Shown: piece by piece, positions 5,116 through 63,551 of the stretch
Layout of the letters: every line of letters begins with the position of its first letter
Position numbering within the stretch: position 1 is the stretch's first letter
Made by a program: the position numbers and the translations under genes
Assembly (NCBI GenBank): GCA_038087875.1
Contig: CM075993.1
Location: 10,170,001 to 10,234,000, forward strand
Direction: 5' to 3'
DNA from: Malacoraja senta
Lineage: Eukaryota
Length of the DNA stretch: 64,000 bases
Notes under the pieces: model-generated
What the model was told of the DNA's origin: nothing
The model's database searches: none
What the model saw: only the letters and a program-made list of their open reading frames with translations

Positions 5116-8100
5116 TGGACTCCACGGATTCACCACCCATCAGACAGCAACATGGTTCTCTCTGAGTGATAAAGTAACAACATCTATCGGAAGTTAGCAC
5201 ATCCTAAAATAATCGATATGCCACGAGCTTCAAACTATTTCAAATTGAGAGCATAAAGTCTTCACAAGTGAACTCCCAGGGATTGTAGAGTTGTGTATTA
5301 ATAAGATTAAGAAGTCATTCACTGCGTTAAGCTGCCCCTGCCTCAAAGGTATTTCAAGCGAAGGAGGTGATGTGAATGTTATTCCGCTTGTTCACATTCA
5401 CACACCGTGGTGCAGTTACAGAGGCAGCATTGACGTATTTGAGGTCAGTCTTAAGTATATTATGTGGAGGTCCAGCCAGCGGTCAATAAAAAAAAAAAAG
5501 CTCATTATTTTTGGACACACGGCCTCAGAATGCCAGAAGAATCAGAGCACTAATCTTTGACCATCTGATTATAAACCAAACTCCAAACCTTCCAAGTCAG
5601 ACCAGAACAAACTCTCCCACATGGCCATATATCTTTCTGTGTTGAGGATTACATTTCTCAACCAGAAGGCTTGGTTTCCTGTCAATGTGTTTTTGGCCAG
5701 TGAATAATTAAATACTGGAACACCCATGTGGTTATGTAGAACGAGCACAAAGCGGATTGTTGTGGGTAGTTTTCAGCATGAAACAGTCCCGACAGGAGAC
5801 GTGCAGAAATCTCCTGGTCTCTGGAATGTTTTGAGGGGAGAAGCCCCTTGGAGCAAAGATCCTGTAGCCTTGGAGTGCCCGGGTCAGACTCGTGAGAGCA
5901 ACGTGACAGAGCTTTAGAGGCTGAGAGGACAAACATACTCATTCGCACACTGTGGGGGAGGAAGGGGGAGAGAGGGGGGGGGGAGAGGGGAGAGTACGCA
6001 CACAAGGCTGGGGGAGGGGTGGGTGGGAGTCATGGTAAATGTCCACTGACGTTTAACTAGCGACATATAAAAGGTCATCGTCCCCGGGTGCTCCGGTTTC
6101 CTCCCACACTCCAAAGAGTACAGCTTTCAAGGTTAATTGGCATCGGTAAAGTTGTCCCCTCATCGAGCAGCATGTGGTCTGAGCGGATAAAGGTTTGCAC
6201 AACGCGGGACTGCAACCCTGCTTCAAGTGGGAGCTGTAATTGACTCGATGATATCTGCCTATCTGTACCTCTGGTTATTGATTCACCTGCCCTGGGTAAA
6301 GGACTCTGTTCATTCACCCTATCTATTCCCCTCGTGGTCTTATACAGCTCTATAAGATCGCCCCTCGTACAATCCTGCACACTAGGGACAATTTACAATT
6401 TTACCAAAGCCAATTAACCTACAAAAATATCTCTTGTTTCCCTTTCCTCGGACTCTCAGTCTGAAGAAGGGTCTCGACACGAAACGTCACCTATTCCTTT
6501 CCTCCAGAGATGCTGTCCGACCCGCCGAGTTACTCCAGCTTTTTGTGTCCTTGGTTTTACCAGCATCTGCAGTTCCTTCCTACATATTTAACTTACAAAC
6601 CTGTACTCATTGGAGTGTGGGAGGAATCCGGAGCAGCTGGAGATGGCGAGCTTTTACAAATCGCTGGTCATGCATCAGGGCCTATTTACCATGATTACCA
6701 GCCACCCCTCCCACCCTCACCTCACCCACCCACCCACCCCACCTCATTCACACACCCAACCCACCCACCCACACCTCACCCACCCACCCACCCCAGCCCA
6801 CCCACCCCTGCTCACTCCATCAATGGCAGAGTAGGCGATGGGCTGAATGGCCTAATTCTGCTCCAATCACTTGTGAACACTGGGTGGATTTGAATAAGGG
6901 TCCTGACCCGAAACATCACCTATCCATATTCTCCAGAGATGCTGCCGGACCTGCTGAGTTACTCCAGCACTTTGTGTCTTTTTGTTTTGTAAACTAGCAC
7001 CTGCAGTTCCTTGTTTCTACATTCTCGAACATAGTCTGCACGCCGTCAGCCTTCAGCACTGACACAAGTGCCTGTGTTATGGAGCACGCGACTTCCAAAC
7101 CATTGAAATGCCTTCACGCCTCTCCTTGACCACCACAAGACTGGTGGGGGAGGGGAATGGAGGAGTTAACCTTACCACTACGACCCCCCCCCCCCCTCCC
7201 CTCCCATCCACAGGCTCCTTGCTGCCACTGGATCTATTCTCCTTACTACATGTAGGAGGCCCTGTGCTGGCACTCGCTGGAGTTTAGATGAATGAGGGGG
7301 GGACCTCATTGAAACATACAGAATAGTGAAGGACTTGGATAGAGTGGATGTGGAGAGGATGTTTCCACTAGTGGGAGAGTCTAGGACTCAAGGTCACAGC
7401 CTCAGAATGAAAGGACGTTCTTTTAGGAAGGAGATAAGGAGGAATTTCTTTAGCCAGAGGGTGGGGAATCTGTGGAATTCTTTACCACAGATGGCTGTGG
7501 AGGCCGTCAGTGGATATATTTAAGGCAGAGAGATAGATTCTTGATTATTATGGGTGTCGGAGGTTGTGGGGAGAAGGCAAGAGAATGGGGTTGGGAGGCA
7601 GAGATAGATCAGCCATGAATGAACGGCGGAGTAGACTTGATGGGCCGAATGGCCTAATTCTGCTTCCATCACATGATCTTAACTTTGCAGATACCCAGCT
7701 GGGGGCGTTGTCATTCCCTCTTCTCCCCTCTCCTGTCGCGCAGAAGATATGAGAGCTGGAATGAATCTACCACCAGATTCGGAAAAGGCTTCTGCCCCGC
7801 TGTTATCGACTTAAATGGTCCTCTCATGAGCTAAGAGTGCTGACCTACTATTTTCCTCATCGGTGACCCTCGGACTCTCCTTGATCGGACTTTGCTGGTT
7901 CTACCTTGCACTAAACGTTGTTCCCTTATCATGTATCTGTACACTGTCAATGGCGTGATTGTAATCATGTATTGTCTTTCTGTTGACAATAAACTAAACA
8001 CTTTATTTTAAAATTGTACTTTCCAATTTTAACGCTGTTACACCATATTCTGCACTCTGGTATTTTTCTCTTGATACTACCTGTTGTCCATGTCCCGGGC

Positions 8101-11100
8101 TTGATTGTACTGGTGTATAGTATGATTTGACTGGCTATCAGGCACACTGGCTAAGACCTTATTCCTTGGAGCACAGAGGGTTGAGGGATAATCTTATAGA
8201 GGTGTACGAGATCATGAGGGGATTAGATAGGGTGAATGCACAGAGTAGGTGAATCAATAACCCGAGGACATAGATTTAAAGTGAGAGATGAAAGATTTAA
8301 TAGAAACCTGGGACCAACATTTTCAGCCAGGATGGAGGGTATAAAGGAACAAGCTGCCGGGCCGGAGGATGTAGTTGAGGCAGAAGCTCCTACAGCAGTT
8401 CAGATATTTGGACAGGTACATGGATAGGAAATGTTTAGAGGGATATGGGCCAAACGTATTCAAATAGAACAAGCCGAGATGGGGCATCTTGAACAGCATG
8501 GACGAGATGGGCCGAATGGCCTGTTTCCATGCTCTATGGGAGATGCCTGGCAGTAAACCTGGGTGAAGCCCCTGGACTAACAGGGGAGGCAGAGTGTTTA
8601 CAGAGCAGGAACGAGGGTTCGATCCTGACTGCGGGTGCTACCAGTTCGGAGTTTGTACGTTCTCTCTGGGACCACGTGGGTTTTCTCTGGGTGCTCTGGT
8701 TTCCTCCCACACTCCAAAGACATGCAGGTTTGTAGGTTAATTGGCTTTGGTAAAATTGTAAGTTGTCCCTAGTGTGAAGGATAGGGCTAGTGTATGGGGA
8801 TCGCTGGTCGGCGCGGACTCGGTGGGCCAAAGGGCGACATCCAAGTGTCACAACGAGAGAGGTGATGGTTTAGTATTCATCAAAAACAAGAATGGACACT
8901 TAAACAGGAAGTTAAAATGAAGCAAAACAATAGAAATATGTTTGCTGTATGCTATTTTTGTAAAGTAAAATATCACTCACAATGCCACGAATTATGGTGG
9001 AAGAAACATTCAAAATAGCTGTCAAAAGGGGAAGTCCGTGAGGGTTTAGTGGCCACAAGCTCCTGCTAAGAACCTGCACAGGGTAGATGAGACAAGTGAG
9101 GACACAAGGTGCTGCAATAACTCAGTGGGTCAGGCAGCATCTCAGGAGAACATGGACAGGTGACATTTCAGGTCAGGACCCATCTTCAGACACAAAACAT
9201 CATCTGTCCATGTTCACCAGAGATGCTGCCTGACCCGTTAAGTTACTCCAGCACTGTGTGTGTGACTTTTGTAAACCAGCATCTGCAGTTCCTTGCATCT
9301 ACGTCTTAAAGAAGATGCAGTTTATTGGTGTTTGGGTTGTCAAAGTTGTACAGCATGGCGACAGGCTTGTGTCCATTTGTGGAAAGCAGCATCTGCAGTT
9401 CCTTGTTCTCACTGGATGAGTCAAGTGGTCTACTTCTGTGCTTTAAAAGCCAGCAATGAGTGCCTTTACAACGGAAGTTACCGAGAAGTGGTCAGAAGCA
9501 AGTCAAGTTTTCAAATAGAATTGCTGGCGTTGATCAGATAAAAGGACACATCCCCCTCCGTTGTGGGCAGCCTGAGAATCAAGAACAAACCATCCCCAGC
9601 ATCTGCACCGAGTGACAGACGTCTGGGTTGACAGAACGTTCTGTAGAGTTGGCAGCTACCTCTGTAGTGGTGCCCAGTGTCACCTGTTCCATGCTCAAAT
9701 TAGCCATTGCAAACTTTGCTTCCCATTCCAGGGCCCTGGCACCGGAGAGTTGTCTGGGATCGAGGGAGGATACCAGCCCACAGCAGCCTCACACACACAC
9801 ACACACACAAATTCCATGACACTCAATGAGTTCCTGCTTGGAGAGGAGTTACACAAAGTGGCTGGCTCTGGTTCCAACACTCTCTCTAAATTCTGAACGC
9901 CTTTTTAGAGTTCTCCTTCAACTTTCCGGCTTCAGTGTTCCTGGTGTCACACATGGAAAGTCCCTCAGTCCAGGGATGGTTCCACAGGCAATAGACAATA
10001 GGTGCAGGAGTAGGCCATTCGGCCCTGCGAGCCAGCACCGCCATTCAATGTGATCATGACTGATCATCCCCAATCAGTACCCCGTTCCTGCCTTCTCACC
10101 ATATTCCCTGACTGCTATTTTTAAGCCCTATCTAGCTCTCTCTTGAAAGCATCCAGAGAACCTGCCTCCACCGCCCTCTGAGGCAGAGAATTCCACATAG
10201 TAGAGATACAGCACAGAAACAGGCCCTTCGGCCCACCGAGACCGCGCCAACCAGCGATCACCGTATACTGACACTATCCTACGCGCACTAGGGACAATTT
10301 ACACAAGCCACAGATTAACTACCCTGTGACTAAAGAAGTTCCTCCTCACCTCCTTTCTAAAAAAGCACCCTATAATTCTGAGGCTGTGATCTCTGGTCCT
10401 GGACTCTCCCACCAGTGGAAACATCCTCTCCACATCCACTAACTATCATTCAGGATGGTCTGTGACGACACAGTGGTGCGACCCAGTGTAGTCCGGGGTC
10501 TGAATGAGTCAGAGTTTGTGAGAGTGTGGGAGGTCAGACGACCATGACCCTGACCAGGTGTGAAAGTGACACAGATATGGAGGTGTATCTCAACAGAAGG
10601 GCAGATGAGTTAGGAACAACGCATTATTGTTTCCATTCAATGACAATACTCTTGCTTTTGGTCAGAACCTGAACGTCCCCCTTAAAGTCAAGCACAACTC
10701 GGCTATGGGAGTCCCCTGACTCTGTCTGAAGAATGGTCTCGACCCTAAACGTCACCCATTCCTTCTCTCCACAGATGCTGCCTGTCCCGCTGAGTTACTC
10801 CAGCATTTTGTGTCTATCTTAGGCAATGGGAATAAATCTATAGTCCACTGAAAACATTCCTCTCTGCCAGTTTCCAGTATACACCTGGGAGAACCAAGCA
10901 CAGTGTATTTTATTAGAAATCAAGGTTGTTGAGAATAATCACATTAACCTGATAGGTATACAAAATGATGAGAGGCATAAATAGGGTAAAGAGTCAGAAA
11001 CTGAAGGAGGGTTTCGGCCCGAAACGTTGCCTATTTCCTTCGCTCCATAGATGCTGCCGCACCCGCTGAGTTTCTCCAGCATTTTTGTGTACCAGTCAGA

Positions 11101-14349: not shown

Positions 14350-14549
14350 NNNNNNNNNNNNNNNNNNNNNNNNNNNNNNNNNNNNNNNNNNNNNNNNNNN
14401 NNNNNNNNNNNNNNNNNNNNNNNNNNNNNNNNNNNNNNNNNNNNNNNNNNNNNNNNNNNNNNNNNNNNNNNNNNNNNNNNNNNNNNNNNNNNNNNNNNNN
14501 NNNNNNNNNNNNNNNNNNNNNNNNNNNNNNNNNNNNNNNNNNNNNNNNN
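14350..14549. other. Assembly gap (200 N)
   Basis: Run of N. Confidence 1.
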
Positions 14550-14805
14550 TACTTGAAGTTAGAGAAGTCTATGTTCATACCGCTGGGGTGTAAGTTGCCC
14601 AAGTGAAATATGAGGTGGTGTTCCTCTAATTTGCGCTGGGCCTCACTCTGACAATGGAGGAGACCCAGGACAGAAAGGTCAGTGTGGGAATGGGAGGGGG
14701 AGTTAAAATGTTGAGCAACCGGGAGATCTGGTAGGTTCAGGCGGACTGAGCGGAGGTGTTCAGCGAAACAATCGCCGAGCCTGCACCTGTTCTCGCTGAT
14801 ACAGG
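14550..14805 (-). mobile_element. Penelope-like element, GIY-YIG endonuclease C-terminal remnant
   Basis: RLGDCFAEHLRSV...PVAQHFNSPSHSHTDLSVLGL...RKLEEHHLIFHLGNLHPSGMNIDFSNFK, a typical vertebrate Penelope endonuclease tail. Cut off by the assembly gap. Confidence 0.85.
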
Positions 14806-15374
14806 TCACTAGACTTGCCCCTAATTACCCTTGAATTGCATGACATGTTCAACACAGTGGCACAGTTTGTAGAGCCTCTGCCTCACAGCACCAGTAACCC
14901 GGGTTCGATCCTGACCTCGGGTGCGGTCAGGAAGCATCTCTGGAGAAAACGAATAGGTGACGTTTCGGGTCGAGATCCTTCTTCAGAGGTCCGAACAAAG
15001 TTAGTGGCATTGGTGTTGGTACAAAGAATTTGAGCTTTTATTTAGTTTTTCTCGAATATTTAAAAAAAAAATGTATTTAATTTCTATTGTTTTATCTATT
15101 ATCTATTGATGACTGTGTTTACAGGCCTGTTATGCTGCAGCAAGTGGCGGTCATTGTTCCGTTTCAGTATATATGACTAGTAAACACTCTGGAGTCACAG
15201 ATAGCTAGAGTGGATAAGGAAGAATGATCTATTCCTGAAGCGTTGAGTGAGCCTGATGGGATTTTATGCCAATCCTGTCATCTATATCACTGGTACTTGC
15301 TGTAAATTCTCGGTTTATTTAATTAATGAGGATGTAAACTCCCCAGAGCATGTTGAACCTGGATTTCTGGATAA

Positions 15375-16309: not shown

Positions 16310-16780
16310 AACCCCCCCCCCCACCCATTCCCACACTGACCTTTCTGTCCTGGGCCTCCTCCATTGTCAGAGTGTCGCCCAGTGCAAATTGGAAGAACAG
16401 CACCTCATATTTCGCTTGGGCAGCTTACACCCCAGCGGTATGAACATTGACTTCTCTAACTTCAAGTAACTCTTGATTTCCTTCTCTCTCTCCATCCCTC
16501 CCCTTCCATAGTTCTCCAACCAGTCTGACTGTCCCTCTGATTACATTTCATCTTTGTATGCCTCGTTGTCACCGTCTCCTCGCTAACAATTATCTATTCT
16601 ACATTTTCCTTGAGCTGCATCTCCCTTGATGTCTTGTTTTCACACCTTGCCCTTCCTTATCTCTGTGCGTCCCTCTCATCTGACTCTCGGTCGGAAGAAG
16701 GGTCTCGACCCGAAACGTCACCCATTCCTTATCTCCAGAGATGCTGCCTGTCCTGCTGAGTTACTCCAGCATTTTGTGTC
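16310..16780 (+). mobile_element. Penelope-like element 3' end: endonuclease C-terminus, 3' UTR and the hammerhead-bearing module
   Basis: HSHTDLSVLGLLHCQS...GMNIDFSNFK* ends at 16469 and runs through the UTR into gaagaagggtctcgacccgaaacgtcacccattcc...gagttactccagcattttgtgtc. This links the ubiquitous short repeat to Penelope. A similar 3' end lies at 32425-32990. Confidence 0.85.
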
Positions 16781-18041
16781 CATCCCCATAGGTTTGTGTG
16801 AGTTCCGTGGGAGCCTGGAGTGGGGTTATTGTCGTAGTTATTGTGTCATTGGTGGACCAGTTCTAAATTGGGAAGCACCAAACGCAAGGAGCAATTGGAG
16901 ATGTGTGAATGACTGCGCGCATTGCTTGGAGTTCAGTGTCCTGAGTCACCATGGTGTGTACATCAGCAGGGGATGAGGACTGAAGGCTTCGGATCCAAAC
17001 ACCCCTGAGTAAACCAGCTCGTATCAGTGGATTAAACTAACGACTAACTACAGTGTGGAAACAGGCCCTTCGGCCCAAATTCAGCCATGATCACATTGCA
17101 GGCCTACTCCTGCACCTATTGTCTATTGTCTATTGTCTAAATTGCCCACACTGGCCAATGTGACCCAGCTACACGCGTCTCACCTGCCCGCATTTGGCTC
17201 ATTTCCCTACAAACCTGGGCTATCCATGTACCTGTCTAACTATTTCTTAAATGTTGGGATAGTCCGTGCCTGAACTACCTCCTCTGGCAGCTCATTCCAT
17301 ACACCCACAACCCTTTGTGTGAAAACGTTACGCCTCAGATTCCTATTAAATCTTTTCCCCTTCGCCGTTAAACCTATGTCCTCTGGTCCTCGATTCCCCT
17401 ACTCTGGGCAAGAGACTCTGTTCATCTACCCGATCTATTCCTCTCATGATTTTCTACACCTCGATAAGATCACCCCTCATCCTCCTACGCTCCAAGGAAT
17501 GGAGTCCCAGCCTACTCCACCTTCCCCTACAGTTCTAGCCCTGGCAACATCCCTGTAAATCTTCTCTGTACCCTTTCCAACATCTTTTCTGAAGATAGAC
17601 ACAAAAAGCTGGAGTAACTCAGAGGGACAGGCTGCGTCTCTGGAGAGAAGGAATGGGTGACGTTTCAGGTCGAGACCCCCATCTTCAAATATCTTTTCTC
17701 AGTTAGATGAATTTTCAGAGTGCAGTCTAGCGTGTCTACATTTCTGCACCTTCCACTCCTACAAGGCAACACATGCAGGTCATGTTCAGCTTGTGGTCTG
17801 TTTGCATTCTTATGCCTGGTTACGAGGGTTATGATATAATTTGTTAATTTGTTGATTATTTATTGTGTGGTTGTAAGGCTGCAACAAGTAATAATTTTAT
17901 TGTTCCATTCTTGGTGAATATGACAGACAAACGATCTTGACTCTTGAATGACGTGTAACTGGCAGGTGTATCGCTATTAATGATACTTTTACAAGTCAAA
18001 TTTTCCGAGATTTACTGCAAAGTAAATCAATGAGATTCCTT

Positions 18042-18470
18042 CTAGTTGATCAGCTTGATCAGCTACAAGGAAGCTAGATCAGTCGATCTAGTTTTAACGA
18101 AGGAACTGCAGATGCTGGAAAATTGAAGGTACACAAAAATGCTGGAGAAACTCAGCGGGTGCAGCAGCATCTATGGAGCGAAGGAAATAGGCCAGGTTTC
18201 GGGCTGAAACGTTGCCTATTTCCTTCGCTCCATAGATGCTGCTGCACCCGCTGAGTTTCTCCAGCATTTTTGTGTACAGTCGATCTAGTTGATCAGCTAC
18301 AAGGAAGCTAGATCAGTCGATCTAGTCGATCTAGTTGGTCAGTCACAAGGAAGCTAGATCAGTCGATCTAGTTGATCAGCTGCAAGGAAGCTAGATCAGT
18401 CGATCTAGTCGATCTAGTTGGTCAGCTACAAGGAAGCTAGATCAGTCGATCTAGTTGATCAGCTGCAAGG
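18042..18470. repeat. 37-bp tandem repeat (gatctagttgatcagctacaaggaagctagatcagtc), about 5-6 units, interrupted by a Penelope-derived fold-back
   Basis: Direct reading. Some units carry an extra 9-mer, gatctagtc. Confidence 0.88.
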
Positions 18471-18680
18471 AATCTCATTGATTTTCTTTGCAGTAAATCT
18501 CGGAAGATAATTGGGTGGTGAACGTATTCTCGCTCCTCTCCCTCTCCATTCAAAGTATTCAGAAATTTATCATGTAAATGGAATTCTGTACTTTGAGAAC
18601 TTCATCACAAAAATATTTTTGCTGAGATTGATTTCTTTGGCCATGGCAGCTGCAGGAGAGGTTGGTCAGTCAGCTGGTGT

Positions 18681-18708
18681 CTGAAGAAGGGTCTCGACCC
18701 GAAACGTC
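18681..18708 (+). ncRNA. Minimal type I hammerhead ribozyme core (Penelope-associated), CUCG-loop variant
   Basis: CTGAAGA-A-GGGT(CTCG)ACCC-GAAA-CG-TC. Confidence 0.6.
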
Positions 18709-19147
18709 ACCTATTCCTTTTCTCCAGAAATGCTGCCTGAGCCGCTGAGTTAATCCAGCGCATAGTGTTGCCTGACTGGGTTGCAAGCGATTTCTTTGTT
18801 TGAGGTTAATAATGTGTGACGACTGCAAGATTCTGTGTAATGTGGGTAATGAGCCATCGTCAGCTTTCGATGACTAATCGCTTCAAGAAACTTCTTAATT
18901 AAAAAATGCAGGGGCTCATTTTTCTTCATGACCCAGTTAGTGAAGAAACCTTCCCTGTGAACTGTTTGGGAAGATCGATCGATTCATGGTTATACATGGC
19001 TTCTACGATCTACAGGAGACATCCCTTCAAAAGCAAACTAAATTGGTATTAGTCCAAGCGTTGTGGGGGAAAATTGTAAATTAGCGGCGTTTATCGCTAC
19101 CAGTGCATGTATGTATGAAAAAATAATTTAATGGTGAGAGCGAGTGG

Positions 19148-19613: not shown

Positions 19614-21419
19614 CTCCATTGACTGTATGATATGCATCGTCTCTTCAAAGCCAGGGCTTGCTGGTTTCCACATACGTTTCTGTGGAAGGATGCGTGCTAT
19701 CCGCAACAGCAGGTGAAATGTGTTAGAAGGAACTGCAGATGCTGGTTTACACCGAAGATAGACACAAAATGCTGGGGTAACTCAGCGGGACAGGCAGCAT
19801 CTCTGGAGAGAAGGAATGGATGACGTTTTGGGTAATCTGAAGAAAGGTTAAGAACTGCAGATGCCGGTTTAAATTGAAGGTAGACACAAAATGCTGGGGT
19901 AACTCAGCGGGACAGGCAGCACCTCTGGAGAGAAGGAATGATCACATCACATTGTTACACAGGCTTTATGCCTCAGTTTTCTGCCTCTGTCTCTGGCGAG
20001 AAGGAATGGGTGACGTTTCGGGTCGAGCCCCTTACGGGTCTCGACCAGAAACGTCACCCATTCCTTATCTCCAGAGATGCTGCCTGTCCCGTTGAGTTAC
20101 TCCAGCATTTTGTGTATCTTCGGTGTAAACCAGCATCTGCAGTTCCTTCCTACACAAAAGATTTTAACATTGACCTTTTCCTCACTTAAAGAGATGTTAA
20201 CCATTTGAGTCTGAAATGACGCTGGATCTCGACGTTTGGCAGAAGCAGAGAGTCTGGCTGATGGTATCTCTGGAGCTTTGGCCAGGGGTGGCATGTTTGC
20301 TGATACGAGTCTGGCAAACTCAGAGGGCTGTGTTGCTCTGCGAACTGCACTCCACTCTCCCACCACTGAGGCAGAGAGGCAGAAAGCGGAGGCGTAAAGC
20401 CTGCGTAACAATGTGATGTGATCATTTTCTGCTGGACATTTTGAACCCTCACTTACATAGTTCCTTTCACCAAGATGAGGGTAGTTCTAACAGTACATTT
20501 GACGAACAATCATCATAGTAGTTTATTTAAGGGAGGATTGCACCTAAAAGGCCTGTCTCACGAGTCTGCGGTCATTGGCAGCGAAACGGGAAGAATCTGC
20601 TTCCATAGACCGCGCACTCGTGAGAACGCACAATTCCGGGGCTGTGCGGCGGTGTGCCCAACACCGCACGGTGCTAAAATAAAACCTACACTGTTGAAAA
20701 CTATATTCTTACCGCACAACCTCCACCGGTGATGCACGAGTGCGGCACGGCCGCCCGCACGGGCCGCCGCCAGTGTGGCTCGAGCGCCGTGCGTCAAACT
20801 TCCACTGCCACAGCCTCCGCCGGTGAGGCACGTGTGCGGCACGGCCGCAGGCACAGCCACCGCTACAGCGCCGCGATCAGGACGGCCGCCGCCACAGCCG
20901 CCGCTCGTGAGTCACGTGCGGCGGGCCGACGTCATCGCAGTCGGCCCGCCCTTTTTTTTACTTACCGCAAGCACGTGGGACCAGCCGTATTTGAATTACT
21001 CGGCCCCCGCGCAGCATCCGTGCGGCGCTCCCGTGGATAGGCTCGGCGCTCTCGCCGTTGCCGTGCGGTCCCCTCGACCGGCGACGCCGCGCTTCACCGC
21101 CGATGACCGCAAACAGGTAAGTCAGGCGCAAAGATATCTCTGGTCGTGCGTATAGTCAGGTTCTGCGGTACATCAAAGTCTAAGCATATGGTCAGATTCT
21201 AGTTTATTGTCCTGTCTAACCAGGTATTGTCGTGTGCTATCCAGTCAGCAGTAAGACGGTACATGATTACAATTGTGCCGCCCACAGTGTACAGATATAC
21301 GTTAAAGGGAATAACGTTTACTGTGAGATAAGGTCCAGTAAAGGGCGCGACTGGTCATTGATTAAGCTGCTGGCCTTGCCAAGGCAGCGTGAAGTGTAAA
21401 TGAAGTCGAGGGAAAGAAG

Positions 21420-21609
21420 GTTGAAGAAGGAACTGCAGATGCTGGAGTATCAAAGGTAGAGAAAATTGCTGGAGAAACTCAGCGGGTGCGGCAGCATCTA
21501 TGGAGCGAAGGAAATAGGAGACGTTTCGGGACGAAACGTTGCCTATTTCCTTCGCTCCATAGATGCTGCCGCACCCGCTGAGTTTCTCCAGCAATTTTCT
21601 CTACCTTCA
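21420..21609. mobile_element. Penelope-derived fold-back element (subfamily B) with 11 bp TSD
   Basis: Two inverted halves. agggaaagaag at 21409-21419 and 21610-21620. Confidence 0.8.
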
Positions 21610-22454
21610 AGGGAAAGAAGATTGGTTTGAGCGATCTTGCGGGGTGACGCCTGTATGGTCGTGAGTAGTCGCCCAAAGAGTTACCTTTTTCTGGTCGCTG
21701 CTGGATTTTCAACATGTTGAACATTTTCGGCGACCCGCTGTGACTATGACGGGTGCCGGCAGTCGCTGAACAAAATCACGTAAGTGGGACAGGCCCTTAA
21801 GACTTTCCATGCTTGTTTGCATTTTTACCCAAGACTGGGATAGAATATTGCCACTGAACCAACATCGTAAGACATAGGAGCATGATCTATCTTTTACTTT
21901 TAGCCCCATTCACCTGACTGCTCCTCATAACATGTTCATACGTTCTAGGTGAGGAATTGGGCCATTCGGCCCATCAAGTCTATTCCGCCATTCAATCATG
22001 GCTGATCTATCTCTCCCTCTCAATCCCATTCTCCTGCCTTCTCCTAATAACCCCTGATGCCTGTACTAATCGAGAACTTGTCGATCTCCGCTTTAAAAAT
22101 ACCCACTGACTTAGCCTCAACATCCGCTGCGGCGCTGAATTCCATGTACTCGCCACCCTCTGGCTAAAGAAATTCCTCCTCATCTCCATTCTAAAGGTAC
22201 GTCCTTTTATTCCGTGCCCTCTGGCCTTAGACTCTCCCACTAGTGGAAACATCCTCTCCACATCAACTCTCTCCAGGCCTTCACCTGATTCAATGTAGGG
22301 AAAACCAGTGCTTATTTTGTGACTATGACTCCTAAAAAGTTAAAAAATTAGGTCTCTTTAATACTTCACAGAAGTTTTAATTATATAATCTATTTATTAA
22401 ATTAGGCAACCAGGCCCTTAAACAGTCTAAGCAGTTTATAGGATGACAATCTGT

Positions 22455-24160: not shown

Positions 24161-26240
24161 CATACTCAGTATTCTGATTTTATTTCAGATTTCTGGAATC
24201 TGTAGTATTATTATTTTGTTTTTTCGCTCATTGTTGTCCTAGTTGTTTATGAAGCCATTGAATATTTTTCTAGGTATTGTCTACGTCAGGGGAACAGGAG
24301 TTATAGGGCAAAGTTGGAAATGCTGGGGCTTTTTTTTTGGAGCGTAGGAGGCTGAGGGGCGACTTATTGAGGTGTACAAGATCATGAGGAGCGCGGATAA
24401 AGTGAACGCTCACAGTCCTTTTCCCCAGGGTAGAGGATTCTAAAATAGAGAGCATTGTTGGATATAGGTGAGAGGGGAGAGATTCAAGGGGCCCCTCAGG
24501 AGCACCTTTTTCAATCGGAGGGAAGTCCGCACCTGGAACGAGCTGCCAGAAGCTGTAGAAGCGGATACAACTATTAATTTTCAAAGACATGTGGACAGAT
24601 GTATGAATAAGAAGAGGGATACAAGCCAAATACAGGGAAATGGGACCAGCCCAATATCTCAACTTGTTCGGCATGGACAAGGTGGGCTGAAGGGCCTGTT
24701 TCCATGCTGTACAATAGACAATAGGTGCAGGAGCAGGCCATTTGGCCCTTCGAGCCAGCACCGCCATTCAATGTGATCATGGCTGATCATCCCCAATCAG
24801 TACCCCGTTCCTGCCTTCTCCCCATATCCCTTGACTCTGCTATCTTTAAGAGCCTTTGCTCACCCACAAATAATGTGAAGTATCTTCATGCTCCTGTCCT
24901 TTGGTGCAGAGCCTCATAACATCCCTACATCTCTCTGTTTGGACCTGAACCCACACAGCAACCATATAGACCGGCTCATCTTCTCACTGCTCAATACTGT
25001 TGTGCAGGGGGCGGCACGGTGACACAGCGGTAGAGTTGCTGCCTTACGGCGCTAGAGCCCCGGGTTCGATCCTGACCATGGGTGCTGTCTGCACGGAGTT
25101 TGCACGTTCTACCTGTGACCGCGTGGGTTTTCTCTGGGTGCTCTGGTTTCCTCCCACACTCCAAAGACATGCAGGATTGTAGGTAGATTGACTCCTGTAA
25201 ATGCGGGATAGAATTTGTTTACGGGTGATCATTGGTTGGTGCGGACTGGGTGGGCCAAACAGCCTGTTTCCACGCTGTATCTCTGGAACGATAACTAAAA
25301 AGCCATATATTTCAAACTGGCGCACATTTGTGCTGCATGCTCTGATCCATGCATCTCCCCTGACCCACTGTTACTTCTCACAGGCCGTTTACCAGCATTT
25401 TCCTACAATGTGCCATCACTGCCTCACGCTTCACCTTTAAATGGAAAGTCAGCACTTGCTCTCAGTGGAGTTCCATTCAACTGCTGTGCGCCCCCCCCCC
25501 TCCACCTACCTTCCTGGACCCCCCCCCTCCCTCCCACCCCCCCTTGCTGCCCCCTAACCTCCCTCGCCTTTGTTGCCCCTCCCACCCACCTTCCTAGACC
25601 CCCCCCCCTCCCTTCCACCCACTTTTCTCCCCTGGGGACAGCAGCCAACATTATGAAGGATTATTGTCACCCTGGTCATTCCCTCTTCTCCCCTGTCCCG
25701 TCAGGCTGAAGGTACAAAGGTACAAGCAGAGATCAGCAGGCTCAGGAACAGATCTCTCTCTCCACTGTTACTGAGCGTCCACCCCCCCCCCCCCCCCCCG
25801 TAAGCTTGGTGTGGTCCTGATCTTCCAACTACATCTTTGCAGACTTTGCGCTTCTTTAGCCTGCACCCTCTCTGTGAGTGTGATACCATAACGTTGTAAC
25901 AACTATATTCTTCATTCTGTTTTTTTTTGTTGGAAAATAAGACACAAAATGCTGGAGTAACTCAAGTGGGTCAGGCAGCATCTCTGGAGAAAAGGATTGG
26001 GTGACGTTTCAAGTCGAGACCCTTCTTCAGACTGGAGTGTTGTCATCGGTTTATAACAAGATGACTGCACTGTCATCACCATCACCATGCAGTAATCATA
26101 CAGCAGACATGTGGCCTGTGACAGTTTCCTGGGTGAATTGTTTAAGAAAGAACTGCAGATGCTGGAAAAATCGAAGGCGGACAAAAATGTTGGAGAAACT
26201 CAGCGTTGCTGAGGCAGCATCTATGGAGCGCAGGAAAGGT

Positions 26241-26268
26241 GACGTTTCGGGTCGAGACCCTTCTTCAG
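26241..26268 (-). ncRNA. Minimal hammerhead ribozyme core, CUCG-loop variant
   Basis: Reverse complement reads ctgaagaagggtctcgacccgaaacgtc. Confidence 0.6.
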
Positions 26269-27688
26269 ACTGAGGTGAATTGGTCAGTTAAATAGTAACA
26301 GTAACATCTCACTGTTTGGGCAACAATAGTCTTTTTCAACAGACAATGGGATTAGGAGGCAGAGATCAGCCATGATTGAATGGCGGAGTAGACTCGATGG
26401 GCCGAATGGCCTATTTCTACTCCTATAACTTGTGAACTGCAGATACTGGTTTACACAGAAGATAGGCACTTTTTAAACAGACACAATGTACTGGAGTAAC
26501 TCTGCGGGTCAGGCAGCATCTCTGGAGGAAAGGAATAGGTGACGTTTTGGGTCAAAACCCTTCTTCAAAGACGTCACCTATTCCTTTTCTCCAGAGATGC
26601 TGCCTGGTCCACTGAGTCACTCCAGCACTTTGTGTCTGTATAAAAAATGTCTATCTTAAAAGGTGTCTGAGTGTCTATCTTCTGTGTAAATCAGTATCTG
26701 CAGTTCACAAGTGATAGGAGTAGAATTAGGCCATTCGGCCCATTGAATCTACTCCGCCAGTCAACCATGGCTGATCTCTGCCTCCTAATCCCATTTTCCT
26801 GCCTTCTCCCCATAACCCTTGACACCTGTTCTAATCAAGAATTTGTCTATCTTTGCCTTACAAATATCCACTGACTTGGCCTCCACAGCCCTCTGTGGCA
26901 ATGAGTTCCACGGATTAACTACCCTTCCGGAAACATTCTTTTTAAGCTGATCGGAGTGTGAAGGTAAAACCTCACCCAGTGAGAGAGAGAAGTCTGCTGC
27001 GGGCAACAGCATTCTTGTTGCGCTAATCAACGTGTTCAGCAACGGACAGCATAAAGCATGCGTCTCAAAGAGCTCCACACAGCTGCCTCCTCCTCACTCT
27101 TGCTGCATAAAGTTTAAATAGCTGAATGCAAGGCATTGCCAAATGCTCCTTGACCGACCCTACCCCCTATATCCTCATTCCATGAATGATTCACATACAT
27201 ACAAACAAACAGGGCGAAGGCCGTGGACTATCAAACCGATCAATTTCCCTCCTGGGATAAATAAAGTTCTATCGTATCGTATTAACCCGCAGACCTGTGG
27301 GGTTTGGAGTGTGGGAGGGAACCAGAGCACCTGGAGGAAAACCCACGAGGTCACAAGGAGAACGTACAAACTCCGTACAGCCAGCACCTGTAGTCAGGAT
27401 CGAACCTGTGTCTCCGGCTTTGTAAGGCATCAACACTATCATTTCACCACCGTGCTGCCCCAATAAATAAATTGTAGTAAATATATGTGTGTGTAGACAA
27501 AAATGCTGGAGAAACTCAGCGGGTGAGTTTCTCCAGCATTTTTGTCTACTTTCGATTTTCCAGCATCTGCAGTTCCTTCTTACACAATGTTCAAGAAGGA
27601 ACTGCAGATGGTGGAAAATCAAAGGTAGACAAAATTGCTGGAGAAACTCAGCAGGTACGGCAGCATCTATGGAGCGAAGGAAATAGGC

Positions 27689-27716
27689 AACGTTTCGGGC
27701 CGAAACCCTTCTTCAG
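27689..27716 (-). ncRNA. Minimal hammerhead ribozyme core, UUCG-loop variant
   Basis: Reverse complement reads ctgaagaagggtttcggcccgaaacgtt. Confidence 0.6.
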
Positions 27717-29374
27717 CCCAAAACGTTGCCTATTTCCTTCGCTCCATAGATGCTGCCGTACCCGCTGAGTTTCTCCAGCAATTTTATCTTCCTTCTCAAA
27801 CAAAGTGTGTGTGTGTGTGTTTGTGTTGGTCGGAGGACTAATGGCTCAGACTGTCCTCTCTGCGTCTAGCCTCTCTCTGCACCTTCCTGACGGGCAAACG
27901 TGACGAGGAGACAGACTGATGCTTTGAACAGAGGATTAACTGAGGCAGAAGTCGATCGGTTCTTGATTAGTACGTAGTTGATTAGCAAATGGAAGGAACA
28001 GCACCTCATATTTCACTTGGGCAGCTTCCACCCCAGTGGTAGGAATATTGATTTCCCTAACTTCAAGTAACCCCTTCATCCCCTCTCTCTCTCTCCGCCC
28101 CTCCCCCACATTAGTTGTCGTACTAGTTTCATTGTCAGACCTCGACCAGAAACGTCACCCATTCCTTCTCTCCAGAGACGCTGCCTGTCCCGCTGACTTA
28201 CTCCAGATTTTTATGTCTATTTCCGGTTTAAACCAGCATCTGCAGTTCCTTCCTCCACTTGTTCCAAAGCCTTTGCTTTTTAACCTGATACCACTGTAAC
28301 CCGCCAGTTTCCTGCATGTCCCAACCTCTGGGCTGAAAGATAATATGAGCAGAAGCTACACCTCAGACTGTTGAAGGATCCCGACTCAAACTGTCACCTC
28401 TCCACGTTCTCCAGAGATGCTGCCTCACCCATGGAGTTACTGCAATACTTTGTGTCTTTTTTTGTAAACCAGCATCTGTAGTTCCTAGTTTCTACACTCA
28501 GACCGTTGAAACCAGTTTCATTGTGAACAAACAGGTGTGGGAATTATTTCTGCTTACAGCAAAGATATAGTTTGAAAAAAATCTGTATCTGTTGACCAAG
28601 CACCTGTCACAACCCATATAGAACCAGTAAAGGGCCTGTCCCACTGTACGAGGTAATTCACGAATTCTCCCAAGTTTTCCCCTGATTCGAACTCGCATCA
28701 AGAAGCGTCAGGTCCGGAAGCAGCGAGCAGTGTTTGTGGATGTAGAAATAGCCAGAGCACCTGGGGAAGGACATATGGTCACAGGGAGAACGTGTAGACT
28801 AGTCAGGGCAAGGTGATCAGGATTGATCTGGGGTCAATGGAGCTGTGAAGAAGCAACTCTGCCCACGGATCCTGTCATAGGTTATCATTTCTGGAGTTTT
28901 CAAACATAATACAGATAGGTGAGGCAGCATCTATGGAGAGAAGGAATGAGTGACGTTTCGGGACGAGACCCATCGTCAGTCTGAAGAAGGGTCTTGACCC
29001 GAAACATCACCCATTCCTTCTCCCCATAGATGCTGCGTCAACCGCTGAGTTACTCCAGTATTTTGTGTGTCTACCTTCGATTTTATCCAGCATCTGCAGT
29101 TCTTTCTCGCACATAATACAGATGGGGTTTGATTGAGTAACTGAGCCAGTTGGTCAGTGTAGAGAGTAGACATGAGGAAACAGCTACTTGCTCAGCTTCT
29201 ATTGACCGCGGGGAATTGTCACTTTCTGGAGAAGGAAGAGGAAGGGTTTGTAATTTGTGAAGGAAGCAGGAAGTGTTTTGAGTGATTGTGGACCTGCTCA
29301 TTGTTACAAAGAACTTACTGTGCTCTTCCTTCCTATTTGTTATCATCTACAAAGTGTTTAATTTGATAATTAGT

Positions 29375-30176
<802 letters not shown>

Positions 30177-34072: not shown

Positions 34073-34100
34073 GACGTTTCGGGTCGAGACCCTTCATCAG
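34073..34100 (-). ncRNA. Minimal hammerhead ribozyme core with canonical CUGAUGA
   Basis: Reverse complement reads ctgatgaagggtctcgacccgaaacgtc. Confidence 0.62.
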
Positions 34101-34134
34101 ACTGAAGAAGGGTCTCAACCTAAGATGTCACCTA

Positions 34135-49102: not shown

Positions 49103-49240
49103 GAAGAATGTCTCGTCTGAAGAAGGGTTTCGGCCCGAAACGTTGCCTATTTTCTTCGCTCCATAGATGCTGCCGCACCCGCTGAGTTCCTCCAGCAATT
49201 TTGTCTACCTTCGATTCTCCAGCATCTGCAGTTCCTTCTT
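49103..49240 (+). mobile_element. Penelope-derived short element (subfamily B) inserted in a CR1, 15 bp TSD
   Basis: gatcattctcgtaaa at 49088-49102 and 49241-49255. Confidence 0.8.
49117..49144 (+). ncRNA. Minimal hammerhead ribozyme core, UUCG-loop variant, sense to the DAPK2 pre-mRNA
   Basis: CTGAAGA-A-GGGT(TTCG)GCCC-GAAA-CG-TT. Confidence 0.6.
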
Positions 49241-52739: not shown

Positions 52740-55000
52740 TTTACAAGGCATTTACCACCGTAGCCGGGGACTTCGACAAAGCCAACCTGAAGAAATCGCT
52801 CCCTAACTTCCACCAACATGTCTCCTGCAGCACCAGAGGATCAAACACCCTTGACCACTGCTACACGACCATCAAAGACGCCTATCGCTCTATCCCTCAC
52901 CTTCACTTCGGTAAATCCGACCATTCAGCCGTGCTGCTTCTTCCTGCCTACAGGCAGCAACTGAAGAAAGCACCCCCAGAGGTGAGGACTGTACAGAGCT
53001 GGTCGGCGGGGGGGGGGGGGGGGGGGGGCAGCAGAGGAAGAACTCCAGGACTGTTTGGAGTCTGTAGACTGTGCAATGTTCAGGGAGGACTGTGTTCCTA
53101 CAAAAACCTTCCAAGTGTTTCCTAACCAGAAGCCTTGGATGAACCATGAGATCCGCATTCTTCTGAAGGCAAGATCCCAGGCATTCAGGTCTGGCGATGC
53201 AGAGGTCTATAAGAAGTCCAGATACGACTTTGGTAAGGCCATCACAAAGGCCGAAAAGGGACTTCTGCTCTAAGCTGGAGGATGTTCAGCAACTGTGGCA
53301 GGGCGTGAATGCCATCACCCCCTACAAGGCAAAATCAGGAGGCGTCTCAAACGACAGCGAAGCATCACTCCCGGTCGAGCTCAATGCGTTCTACGCAAGG
53401 TTCAATAGGGAGAACACTGATGTGCCTTCCTGAGCCCCTATTCGCCCTGATGGTGTTACAGTCATAGTCACAGAGGCCGACGTCAGAAGATCCTTCAGGG
53501 GGGTGAACCCTCGGAAAGCGCCTGGACCTGATGGTATACCCGGTCGTGTTCTAAAAACCTGTGCGGACCAAATGGCTGGAGTTTTTACGGACATTTTCAA
53601 TCTCTCACTTCTGAGGTTCCCACCTGCTTTAAGGGGGCATCCATAATACCGCAAGATAAGTAAGGTGACGTGCCTCAACGACTATCGACCAGTGGCACTA
53701 ACGTCTGTGGTGATGAAGTGCTTTGAGAGGTTGGTTATGGTGCACATCAACTCCTACCTCGACAAGAACCTCGACCTACTACAGTTCGCTTACCGCCACA
53801 ACAGGTCAACGGTAGATGCAATTTCACTGGCTCTCCACTCCGCACTGGACCACATGGACAATACAAAACCTACGTCAGGCTCGGCATTTAATACCATCAT
53901 CCCTTCCAAGCTGGTTACCAAGCTCACGGAACTGGGTCTCTGCGCATCCCTCTGCAATTGGATCCTCGACTTCCTCATCCACAGACCACAGTCTGTTCGA
54001 ATTGGAGGAACCACTTCATCCTCAGTAACAATTAGTACGGGAGCACCTCAAGGCTGCGTGCTCAGCCCCCTGCTGTACTCACTCTATACCCATGACTGCG
54101 TAGCCGGTCACAGTGCGAACTCCATCATCAAGTTCGCCGACGACACCACTGTGGTTGGACGAATCACAGATGGGGACGAGTCAGAGTATAGAAGTGAGAT
54201 CGACCGACTGACCAAATGGTGCCAGCACAACAACCTGGCTCTCAACATCAGTAAGACCAAGGAACCGATTGTGGACTTTAGTAGGGGAAGGATGAGGACC
54301 CACAATCCTGTTTATATCAACGGGACGATGGTGGAGAGGGTCAATAACTTCAAATTCCTGGGTGTGCATATATCAGAAGACCTTTCCTGGACCCATGCAA
54401 TTGTAAAGAAGGCACATCAGCGACTCTACTTCCTGAGAAGATTACGGAGATTCGGCATGTCGAAGAGGATACTCCTAAACTTCTGCAGGTGCACGTAGAG
54501 AACATTCTGACCAGTTGCATCGTGGCCTGGTTGGGCAACTTGAACGTCCAGGAGCGAAAGAGACTACAAAAAGTTGTGACCACTGCCCAGTCCATCACCG
54601 GCTTTGACCTCCCCACCGTCGAAGGGATCTATCGTAGTGGCTGCCTCAAAAAGGCAGCCAAAATCATCAAGGACCCACACCATCCTGGCCACACACTTAT
54701 CTCACCATTGCCATCAGGAAGAAGGTACAGGAGCCTGAAGACTGTAACGTCCAGGTTCAGGAACAGCTCCTTCCCCACAGCCATCAGGCTATTAAACACA
54801 ATGAATAAGCTCTGAGCTCTGAACTGCAAAAGACTATATTATTATTATTTGTTATTTGCACTACATTTGGTATTTATTGAACTTTTTCTTTCCCCCCCGT
54901 TATATACAATGTTTACATATTCACATATTCTGTTGTGCTGCAGCAAGTAACAATTTCATTGTCCCGTCCGGGACATATGCCAATAAAACACTTGACTCTT
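52740..55000 (+). mobile_element. Rex1/Babar-type LINE, 5'-truncated and degraded (end of endonuclease, reverse transcriptase, 3' UTR)
   Basis: Motifs [56 protein letters not shown] and HPGHTLISPLPSGRRYRS. Several frameshifts. 3' tail aataaaacacttgactctt. Confidence 0.92.
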
Positions 55001-57032: not shown

Positions 57033-58364
57033 TAACTCAGCGGGACAGGCAACATTTGTGGATAGAAGGAATGGGTGACGTTTCGGGTCGAGACCCCTCT
57101 TCAGACTAAGGATCTTGACCCGAAACATCATCCATTCCTTCTATCCAGAGATGCTGCCTGTCCCGCAGAGTTACTCCAGCATTTTGTGTCTATCTTCGGT
57201 ATAAACCAGCTTCTGCAGTTCCTTCCTACGCATTAACTTTCTTTCTCTATTCACAGTTATTAACTGACCTGCTGACGTTCCCCGCACTTCTTTCTAGTTC
57301 TTCAGTATTTGCGCATCATTTGGTCTTTTAAGCGGCACGTTTGGCTGAGGAATCCCGTTTGCACCATTGCCAATTCTTCCTTGGTCTTCACTCCTGCAAG
57401 ATCCATGGCTCCATTCCCCCTTCCTCCCAACACCCTTTGTTGATCATCCGGTTTATAACGAAGATAGACACAAAAAGCTGGAGTCTGAAGAAGAGTCTCG
57501 ACCAGAAACATCACCCATTCCCTCTCTCCAGAGATGCCGCCTGTCCCGCTGAGTTACTCCAGCAATTTGTGTCTATTTTTGGAGTAACTCAGCGGGTCAG
57601 GTGGCATCTCTGGAGAACAAGAATAGGTGACGTTTGGGGTCGGAACCCTTCTACAGAAAGTAGAGGTGGGGGGAGGAATAAACTGGATTTGTCCTGGCCT
57701 TCTCTCACTTCCACTACATCCGCCCCCAGACCCCCCCCACCCCAACCCCAACCCCAACCTCTACTTTCACTCTGAAGAAGGGTTCCGACCCAAAGCGTTC
57801 TCAGTTTATCACCTCATTTACAGTGTACTATGTTTACATATTCTGTTGTGCTGCTGCAAGTAAGAATTTAATTGGCGTTTGGGACATGACAATAAAAAAC
57901 TCTTGAAGCATGAAACACATTAAATGCCAGAAGATTGTCGATGTTGGAGAAGTGGGCTGATGTGGGGATTTTGAGGCCCTGTGGCGGGGCGATGAGCCTG
58001 AAGGCCGTTCAGTCCCACTGCAAGTCGACTGAAAGTGGCCTGGAGTTCATAAGATCATGTGATAGGAGTAGAATTAGGCCATTCGGCCCATCACGTCTAC
58101 TCCGCCATTCAATCATGGCTGATCTATCTCTTCCTCCTAACCCCATTCTCCTGCCCTCTCCCCGCAGCCTCTGACAGTTGCGTCCAGTCTGTGGGAGCTC
58201 TGCGTTGTGCAGATGTTGATTTGAATGCCGTGTAACATTGAGGAACTGGAATATTTACTCTGTTTCCCTCTCAAGAGAAACTTCCTGACCTGCCGAACAT
58301 TTCCACTTTCTGCTTCGATGTTAGATTTGAAGCATCTGGCAATATTATTCAGCAAATAACCAGG

Positions 58365-61907: not shown

Positions 61908-62237
<330 letters not shown>

Positions 62238-62538: not shown

Positions 62539-63551
62539 CACCAAGGTGCTATTGTAAATATAAGCTATGTTTACTCTCTAAGCCGCTGTAAGTTTACTCC
62601 CTAAGCCACTCCAAATATCATATATTTACTTTCTTACCACACAGAAGGAGGCCATTCAACCCATCGGGTCTATGCTAGCTCGCAGGGCACACTCATTAGT
62701 CCCATTCCCAGCTGAATGTTGTTCGAAGCTCAGGGCAAAACAAGTACGTATTCTGGATAGTGCTGCACTAGGGGAGGTGGCCCAGGGATAAAGTGTTAGA
62801 TTGAGACTTCATCTGACTGTATATAAAGAACACGCACGTCTGAAGAAGGGTCTCGACCCAAAACGTCACCCATTCCTTCTCTCCGGAGATGCTGCCTGTC
62901 CCGCTGAGTTACTCCAGCATTTTATGCTTCCCCAGACACTCAGCTTCCCCTCCACATCCCACAGATACACTGGGTGGTTGTTTCACTGGCCACTGTTATT
63001 ACTTCCCGTGGCAGTGGCCAGAGGGAGATTGGGTGCTCTTTTTCTGGTCACAGGGAAATGTGGGGGAATAGCAGAGATGGGAGTGCTCTGAGAGCTAGCA
63101 TAGACCAAGTGGGCTGAATGGCCTACTACATCGTAAGGAAATATGAAATAATACCATTGGAACATAGAACAGTAGAGCAGAGGGGACAGGCTCTCCGGTC
63201 TACAATGTCCATGCCTAACATGATGCTAAGACCAACCTTTGATGGCCTGCACATAATCCATCATCTTCCATTCATTACAAATCCATGTGCTTACCCAAAA
63301 GTCTCCTTAATGCCAGTGTAGTATCAGTTTCCACCACGACCTCCGGCAGCACAATCCAGACACTCTGTAAAAAATTAAACTTACCCCGTACATCACCTTT
63401 CAACTTTGCCCCTTTAGTGTTTGATATTTCAATCCTTGAAGGTTCTGTCTACCGTATCTATGCTTCTCATAATTTACTGTCTCGGGTCTCCGCTCATCCA
63501 TTCTAGAGAAAACAATCCAAGTCTATCTAATAGTCACGGTGGCGCAGCGGT

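Follow-up and report, generated by a model that had tools for sequence, protein, structure and literature searches.

Abundant short modules with a minimal hammerhead motif in Malacoraja senta as likely 5'-truncated products of a Penelope-like retrotransposon

In this study, a short repeat carrying a minimal hammerhead motif was analyzed in a stretch of 64,000 nt of Malacoraja senta DNA (the window) and in genome-wide searches. We consider it likely, from comparison of the sequences, that the modules arose by insertion of the terminal repeat (pLTR plus tail) of an EN+ Penelope-like element (PLE) with loss of 5' sequence, that the minimal hammerhead is a weak, protein-assisted dimer in the RNA of the element, and that the dispersed copies are inert.

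Modules and hammerhead cores in the window and the genome

An nhmmer profile built from 20 native copies, 3 of them from the window, detected 84 module fragments in the window. These were about 40–190 nt each, lay on both strands between positions 1432 and 62926, and made up 12.9% of the bases; 40 were in head-to-head pairs, 37 covered the core, and 17 had every core letter. Searching the window for the pattern CTGANGA...GAAAC yielded 15 sites. With the minimal-hammerhead descriptor, 11 matches at 9 distinct sites were obtained (mean 0.02 and maximum 1 in 100 dinucleotide shuffles), and 9 of the 84 fragments passed the full descriptor. A preliminary description of this DNA had called the module the commonest short repeat of the window, which was borne out by blastn (74 matches versus 21–26, the top among five repeats compared). 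It had also placed dozens of modules within 6461..62870; the number held, but the start did not, since copies extend upstream to position 1432.

As a genome sample, 60 segments of 10 kb each were taken from contigs C1–C22 at round coordinates (598.8 kb in total); the profile search found 330 fragments there, corresponding to 0.55 per kb and 5.7% of the bases. Extrapolating this density to 1.94 Gb gives a genome total of about 1 million fragments. All core letters were intact in 92 of the 221 sampled copies that cover the core. Exact 32-nt cores numbered 11,330 for subfamily 1 (CUCG/GUC) and 10,127 for subfamily 2 (UUCG/GUU) genome-wide, and the reversed controls gave 0.

The five intact cores named in the preliminary description were all present as written, with 18681 (+) and 49117 (+) exact; the minus-strand positions 26241, 27689, and 34073 are the low coordinates of cores in which CUGA begins at 26268, 27716, and 34100. 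Features of the window were as follows.

18681..18708, plus strand: minimal hammerhead core, subfamily 1, GUC site; solo module 18679-18768 with its 5' end at -2, upstream of the putative DAPK promoter
49117..49144, plus strand: minimal hammerhead core of subfamily 2 with a GUU site, in a solo module (49115-49249) that includes the tail
26241..26268, minus strand: intact core, subfamily 1; module 26134-26301, tail present
27689..27716, minus strand: intact core, subfamily 2, in the long arm of head-to-head pair 27574-27794; stem I of 0 bp, long hairpin predicted for the RNA
34073..34100, minus strand: intact core, CUGAUGA version, in an arm of head-to-head pair 34014-34134; partner arm interrupted by a Tc1-like transposon and continuing at 35720-35830
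57077..57104, minus strand: additional core passing the descriptor, within head-to-head pair 57033-57237
26003..26030, minus strand: additional core passing the descriptor, with G-U pairs in stem II; module 25940-26036
28918..29122, unstranded: head-to-head pair with its junction at a TCAG-T-CTGA palindrome; of its two cores, that on the minus strand (28979) passes the descriptor and that on the plus strand (28981) shows decay of ACGU
9101..9296, unstranded: head-to-head pair with a descriptor-passing minus core at 9189
18090..18287, unstranded: young head-to-head insertion (type example) with an 11-bp target duplication; long arm with tail plus short arm, stem II holding the junction, without a complete core
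21418..21614, unstranded: head-to-head insertion with an 11-bp target duplication
16320..16469, plus strand: C-terminus of a PLE endonuclease domain, 47-48 codons and stop
16470..16784, plus strand: pyrimidine-rich 3' UTR continuing into a module whose core, at 16692, is mutated to CGGAAGA
14555..14905, minus strand: second PLE coding fragment (linker and endonuclease), 51% identity to the intact ORF, interrupted by a 200-N gap
29954..30175, plus strand: host exon of the death-associated protein kinase (DAPK) family, best PDB match DAPK2
61964..62102, plus strand: next host DAPK exon, delimiting with the preceding one a 31.8-kb intron

Parent element and structure of the motif

The 47 codons at 16326-16466 were used as a genome query and returned 77,467 first-look candidates, 150 of which were scored; a longer query led to young copies with open frames of up to 1,224 aa. 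Copy L112 (G000:C6) is a partial tandem, consisting of a truncated unit, a pLTR with hammerhead and tail, a 5' UTR, an ATG about 165 nt past C3, an ORF of 1,212 aa, and a second pLTR that stops near +100. The motif was located in the pLTR of L112 and of other long-ORF copies, the window example being 16326-16784, and in intact elements it is found between two units, past the stop codon of the first and with about 165 nt separating it from the ATG of the second. Pfam searches with the 1,212-aa ORF matched RVT_1 (E = 6.8e-6) and, C-terminally, GIY-YIG (E = 0.0014), both below the curated cut-offs, and 746 homologues were found at E up to 1e-30 among 5,450 candidates. Between the RT and the endonuclease lies a CX4CxxC linker (C-NRKR-C-NT-C), and judged by the linker descriptions in PMC8557442 the element would fit the Neptune or Nematis type. 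The copies displayed the architecture of EN+ PLEs, namely pLTR partial tandems, an inverted 5' copy, an optional tail, and target duplication, and the subfamily letters of the short modules agree with those of the full-length elements. No relative was detected in the viral contigs searched.

At 16310-16780, the module had been described as continuous with a Penelope GIY-YIG C-terminus. The last 47 aa of the endonuclease domain (16326-16469) are indeed followed by UTR and module; the coding part, however, lies downstream of the GIY-YIG motif itself, and the core there is mutated (CGGAAGA). The UTR ends with a pyrimidine tract plus CAG, as is also the case in D. virilis.

The motif fits the PLE minimal type I core, with CUGANGA, GAAA-N-N'-U-H, a palindromic 15.2/16.2, and no loop III. 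The extra nucleotide between A9 and 10.1 is present, and the 10.1-11.1 pair is G-C in 10/10 aligned sequences. The published consensus for the minimal hammerhead (min-HHR) is CUGANGAH-helix II-GAAAN-NUH with a helix I of about 3 bp, ranging from 2; rows with 2 bp in the supplementary table include D. virilis, Culex, and Oikopleura (PMC4209133). Helix I of the present family is natively 2 bp (47/62 descriptor matches), the third position being A.C in 113 of the 125 rows having letters at both positions, and relatives have 3 bp. Stem II is GGGU-CUCG-ACCC with a GUC site in subfamily 1 and GGGU-UUCG-GCCC with a GUU site in subfamily 2; the two are different PLE subfamilies with 70% identity across 46 C-terminal residues. 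Several points of the preliminary description were thus upheld: the Penelope origin and minimal type I hammerhead with palindromic ACGU (it agrees with the published consensus and lies in a PLE pLTR), the two subfamilies that keep stem II pairing (both types confirmed genome-wide), and the caveat that only about 2 bp of stem I are visible, which is the native state of the family.

No Rfam hammerhead family matched in the window at the gathering score, the surroundings of the L112 copy gave no match at E up to 10, and the motif does not have the make-up of the canonical Rfam-type type I hammerhead (stem-loop helix III, helix I of about 6 bp, loop-loop contact). Other sources of stem I were considered. 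A longer or bulged stem I from native upstream sequence was absent on inspection (pairing probability ≤0.02 in family copies). A spliced exon or common leader was unsupported; among the 100 non-native, non-inverted flanks listed, no upstream sequence recurred except in four copies that derive from a single duplicated locus.

In distant PLEs from metagenome contigs (approximately 40–50% protein identity; 80 loci kept of 152), the core is retained at the equivalent position, past the stop codon, with stems that are paired but differ. The preliminary description had proposed a covariation analysis, for which 10 sequences were hand-picked and aligned. Across families, 5 of 8 pairs were altered on both sides, which was matched in 0/500 shuffles, and paired cells made up 92.5% of the alignment versus ≤45% in slid controls; since the 10 sequences are mutually related, the result counts as support and not as a probability. 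Helix II was supported across PLE families (3 of 4 pairs altered on both sides), and relatives have C-G in place of G-C as the second pair of helix I. In stem II, the family itself showed only a one-sided change (U-A to U-G), which is not compensatory.

Of the 414 rows, 128 extend from -3 to +88 and were used to assess conservation. Among five subfamily consensuses of at least 8 members each, 0 of 11 core positions vary versus 14 of 56 in the tail (p = 0.10). In the copies, non-CpG mismatches amounted to 55/1,199 (4.6%) in the core versus 309/4,847 (6.4%) in the tail (p = 0.021); this slightly better keeping may be due to unresolved subfamilies or base composition, and weak selection would look alike. 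G12, which is in a CpG, was mutated in 27/119 copies (23%) versus 13% at tail CpGs. The lack of excess conservation of CUGANGA/GAAA over flanking positions that the preliminary description had named as refuting was thus not observed. The pattern would nonetheless fit selection on master elements plus decay of inserted copies.

Upon folding, stem I had a pairing probability of ≤0.02, and stem II was context-dependent in subfamily 1 and had a probability of ≤0.01 in the UUCG subfamily 2, whose preferred predicted folds bury GAAAC. For the youngest subfamily, a competing hairpin was predicted at 0.69-0.95 in the -3 to +140 context. The predicted active dimer was 15-28 kcal/mol above the best alternative in models that leave out the tertiary core, and as the dimer of the distant relative, included in this range, is equally disfavoured, the folding model cannot rank activity. 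Head-to-head copies were predicted to form long hairpins hiding the core.

Ends, junctions, and target duplications of the copies

The 5' ends of the copies cluster just ahead of the core. At -4 to -1, 76 ends occurred over 725 positions at risk (10.5% per base), compared with 6/1,701 (0.35%) at +26 to +30 and 60/14,948 (0.4%) at +30 to +70. Exact mapping of 238 copies gave the same clustering, and an identical 5' boundary was seen in sequencing-run contigs of other organisms. Matches of subfamily 2 genome-wide were lost in 3,066/16,371 at -3, 1,980/13,305 at -4, and 1,060/11,325 at -5, point mutations included. The 3' ends form two groups, at +90 to +102 and +130 to +140 from C3. Peaks of 5' ends at +34, +39, and +41 were found to be subfamily indel artefacts. 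A was preceded by G in 810 of the 1,980 copies starting at -3 (41% versus 28% expected); a cap-derived G was not established, the contexts including microhomology, re-copied GAAGAAGG pieces, and a few untemplated G.

Adjacent pairs were head-to-head in 85 of 113 cases and on the same strand in 16, and 52 of the 85 had one short and one long arm. The junctions differ between copies and often use the motif's own palindromes. The pairs were often enclosed by a target duplication; words of at least 8 nt common to both flanks were found in 31/67, versus 2% when shuffled.

The pile-up of 5' ends ahead of the core suggests run-off on an uncut, possibly capped template, although it could instead reflect an RT pause and not the transcript end. 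We infer that uncut RNA would be the main template, with its 5' end, or a strong RT stop, at -3/-2. In the proposed mechanism, the endonuclease of the element would nick both strands of the target and reverse transcription would prime internally at two sites, two such start sites having been shown in vitro for an Anolis element (PMC11167929). Reverse transcription would usually run just 100-140 nt to the 5' end of the uncut template, two such cDNAs would join via the hammerhead's own palindromes, and the inserted copies would then decay, with the core not protected. Head-to-head junctions are also explained by a model of self-priming or antisense templates that Arkhipova et al. put forward in 2013 (PMC3846280).

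At the cut site, unbiased samples showed no clear excess of 5' ends. A spike there was not counted; after correction it was approximately 1.5%, at most 2-3 times the background and about tenfold below -2/-3. A search built for cut-site starts gave 586 purine-preceded matches versus 38,956 to the largely templated pattern, and 14 of the 26 distinct non-array loci inspected had true 5' ends, some with clean target duplications. The same search, which by design selects starts at the cut site and no other junctions, also turned up a perfect tandem array (11.1 units of 138 nt; G000:C1 near 27.82 Mb), the unit of which starts exactly at the cut site and extends to the ATG of the ORF. The array stops at the tail end, and its unit is without the core. 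Microhomology may have contributed to array formation, given that the flank of the cut site and the start of the ORF are similar. Among the 12 joints listed of 324 from sequencing-run contigs, a joint from +88 to the cut site occurred in runs of three organisms and joints into -3 with one intervening G in two runs; the array junction was absent from those listed. Array and joints would be compatible with copying by a rolling circle or with jumps between templates that begin at a cleaved 5' end, and an array starting exactly at the cut site may hint at occasional cleavage. Taken with the 5' ends, the data favour uncut RNA as the probable main template, the cleaved fraction being small at most.

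By contrast, an HDV-like ribozyme family, present at 44721 on the minus strand, starts at its predicted cut site; most of 40 scored matches begin at query position 7-10, and their flanks differ.

Tentatively, the approximately 1 million stubs could be a fossil record of the Penelope cycle, with the start 2-3 nt before the core, RT priming 90-135 nt inside a capped RNA, run-off, and a minority of the RNA cut in vivo; this is possible, although we hold it to be rather doubtful as a whole. The strong-stop-like cDNA would either integrate, giving stubs and head-to-head pairs, or jump to another template, and the cleaved 3' product could form a circle or be copied several times in series, for which the 11 x 138-nt array from cut site to AUG would be an example. 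Helix I would then be so short because transcription starts 2-3 nt before the core.

Alternative explanations, the host gene, and known systems

It is also conceivable that the motif is a catalytically dead relic, the same 30 nt being kept because they act as promoter or transcript start, or because the protein of the element binds there. The helix I of 2 bp as opposed to 3 bp in relatives, the stem II predicted not to form in the youngest subfamily (≤0.01), and the cut site without clear 5'-end excess in unbiased samples would agree with a relic, as would the initiator-like TCAGT at -5 to -1, where copies begin and which we take to resemble the initiator consensus. We regard this as improbable, because subfamilies and distant families alike preserve the 11 core positions and the pairing of the stems, with one-sided changes staying paired, and because the 11-unit array and several copies flanked by target duplications start exactly at the cut site. 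A hammerhead that is weak and works in the RNA of the element is the reading we prefer.

The preliminary description had further proposed that the locus, including a DAPK2 intron, is seeded with self-cleaving RNAs. The exons at 29954-30175 and 61964-62102 belong to the DAPK family, DAPK2 being best by a small margin (113.6 bits versus 110 for DAPK1). The first exon is likely represented by a CpG-rich region near 21.1 kb, where a splice donor is present, and no coding exon upstream of 29954 was found by motif search. Within the confirmed intron (30176-61963), 49117 is the sole descriptor-intact sense copy, and it is solo; the nearest sense copies with core letters, at 33959 and 57485, have a broken ACGU and are 15 and 8 kb off. 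Relative to the gene, three of the five named cores have the antisense orientation; two of these, at 27716 and 34100, are in head-to-head pairs. Downstream of the putative first exon, 26 modules are sense and 24 antisense, and sense copies are not depleted. Published minimal hammerhead monomers showed no cleavage and dimers low cleavage (PMC4209133), and the Anolis PLE hammerhead cleaved only with protein and was dispensable for insertion, uncut RNA being the dominant template (PMC11167929).

The seeding claim was not supported: 9 of the 84 fragments pass the descriptor, one of them sense in the intron, G12 decays as other CpGs do, and folding predictions disfavour the catalytic structure. That dispersed copies cleave host transcripts, DAPK2 pre-mRNA included, and affect the gene might be argued from the 92 of 221 sampled core-covering copies with all core letters, the more than 21,000 exact cores in the genome, and the possibility in principle of trans-dimers. 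We consider it very unlikely in view of the single solo sense copy in the confirmed intron, the absence of strand bias, the loss of G12 and ACGU to CpG decay, the published behaviour of monomers and dimers (PMC4209133), and the long hairpins predicted to hide the core in head-to-head copies; an effect on DAPK2 thus appears unlikely. Equally hard to credit is a self-propagating non-autonomous family (retrozyme-, SINE- or MITE-like) in place of truncation products, for despite the very high number (0.55 per kb in 599 kb), the common start point, the hairpin shape, and one tandem array, the arm junctions vary from copy to copy, just 16/113 adjacent pairs are on the same strand, the array unit is without the core, and the subfamily letters are those of full-length elements.

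Compared with known systems, the motif resembles the min-HHR of metazoan PLE pLTRs, as given in the consensus and tables of PMC4209133, in CUGANGAH, the extra base before helix II, G10.1-C11.1, and the GAAAC-GUH palindrome, as well as in its pLTR position and in occurring mostly as single truncated copies with dual copies on opposite strands. It differs from the norm there in having a helix II of 4 bp and a helix I of 2 bp, the low end of the table. More than 21,000 exact cores in two subfamilies were found here, and PMC4209133 gives about 4,000 motifs for coelacanth and 9,000 for Xenopus; the searched part of its supplement text contains no cartilaginous fish. Our literature search, which covered few subscription papers, found chondrichthyan PLE hammerheads only via one species in a preprint on retrozymes and nothing on strong-stop-like run-off in PLEs.

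According to the sections of PMC11167929 on Poseidon PAc of Anolis, two internal RT start sites define the tail and both strands are extended, and the hammerhead is near the ORF start, all of which is like the element described here; at the cut site of PAc, too, no RNA ends were seen. Unlike in PAc, where the ORF starts at stem II and the RT start sites are within the ORF, the ATG is here about 165 nt past C3, both start sites are in the 5' UTR, and the element carries a Zn-finger-like linker as known from the Neptune and Nematis clades. As in the EN+ PLE units described in the relevant parts of PMC3846280 and PMC8557442, there are partial tandems, an inverted 5'-truncated copy, a tail on one arm, palindromes at the inverted junction, and target duplications of approximately 10 bp; unlike those units, the present insertions mostly consist of two arms alone, with 5' ends sharply at the 5' edge of the hammerhead. 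Non-LTR retrozymes, as outlined in bioRxiv 10.64898/2026.07.22.740005, also carry a PLE-derived type I hammerhead and are known from one chondrichthyan. Theirs are tandem units with a full hammerhead in each, whereas the modules here are dispersed, solo or inverted, and do not belong to that class.

The motif class, the host element, and the low activity were already published in 2014, and as a ribozyme finding this one is ordinary. What it adds is scale and a means of testing: the genome has young intact elements, and its nearly identical copies number in the tens of thousands, so that template ends can be read from it, which bears on the role of PLE hammerheads and on regeneration of the pLTR and tail.

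An HDV-like ribozyme within the DAPK intron

A search with Rfam models placed a second type of predicted ribozyme in the DAPK intron, in antisense orientation:

44644-44721, minus strand: HDV-like ribozyme (CPEB3 model, 36.9 bits; gathering threshold, 35)

A young repeat family, with 2,059 candidates in the genome, carries this ribozyme at its 5′ end; the copies scored (40 of the 2,059) were 95-100% identical and begin at the first G of the ribozyme. The family is presumably of LINE origin, and no RT ORF was found downstream of the ribozyme in three other copies. Genuine self-cleavage is more plausible for the predicted HDV-like ribozyme than for the hammerhead stubs, the Penelope-like element (PLE) fragments carrying the minimal hammerhead motif.

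Probable host promoter and other repeats of the window

The following features were also located:

20500-21150: GC-rich island terminating in a strong plus-strand splice donor
53647-54815, 761-1207 and 30667-31146: partial copies of further non-LTR retrotransposons, each with RT sequence
34133-35720: Tc1/mariner-like transposon with a 301-aa open frame (34502-35407) and 222-nt inverted repeats

The GC-rich island probably holds the DAPK promoter together with a first, non-coding exon. A motif search upstream of 29954 did not recover the N-terminal coding exon that would be expected there. SINE-like and LINE 3′-end repeats were numerous, with 21-26 hits each. The Tc1/mariner-like transposon sits inside one arm of a head-to-head module formed by two inverted PLE stubs, and is therefore younger than this module.

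Window 16326-16900, flanks included, has a near-identical inverted copy on its own contig at a distance of about 67 kb (L001, G000:C17:10117720-10120860), reflecting either a segmental duplication or an assembly artefact. Similar paired hits are present on contigs C2, C7 and C21; therefore, the genome counts may be somewhat inflated.

Structure of the PLE

Further PLE features lie in an intact copy elsewhere in the genome (L112), a tandem array (L284) and the window:

L112:3801-7436: intact ORF, 1,212 aa
L112:3520-3637 and window 16470-16690: long pyrimidine tract of the 3′ UTR
Window 14350-14549: 200-N assembly gap, located at the stop codon of a PLE fragment that it interrupts
L284:1170-2707 (G000:C1 near 27,817,300-27,818,850): 11.1 identical tandem units of 138 nt

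Each array unit starts at the cut site predicted for the hammerhead and reaches the ATG of the PLE ORF, and the array is possibly a product of rolling-circle replication or serial template jumping. The L112 ORF is long compared with about 800-950 aa for many homologues, and its N-terminal half is unusually long, repetitive and Pro/Thr/Ser-rich. No spliced copies were recognised among the PLE copies examined. In both L112 and the window, the pyrimidine tract is closed by CAG directly abutting the hammerhead, giving the 3′ UTR end the look of a 3′ splice site, as in Penelope of D. virilis.
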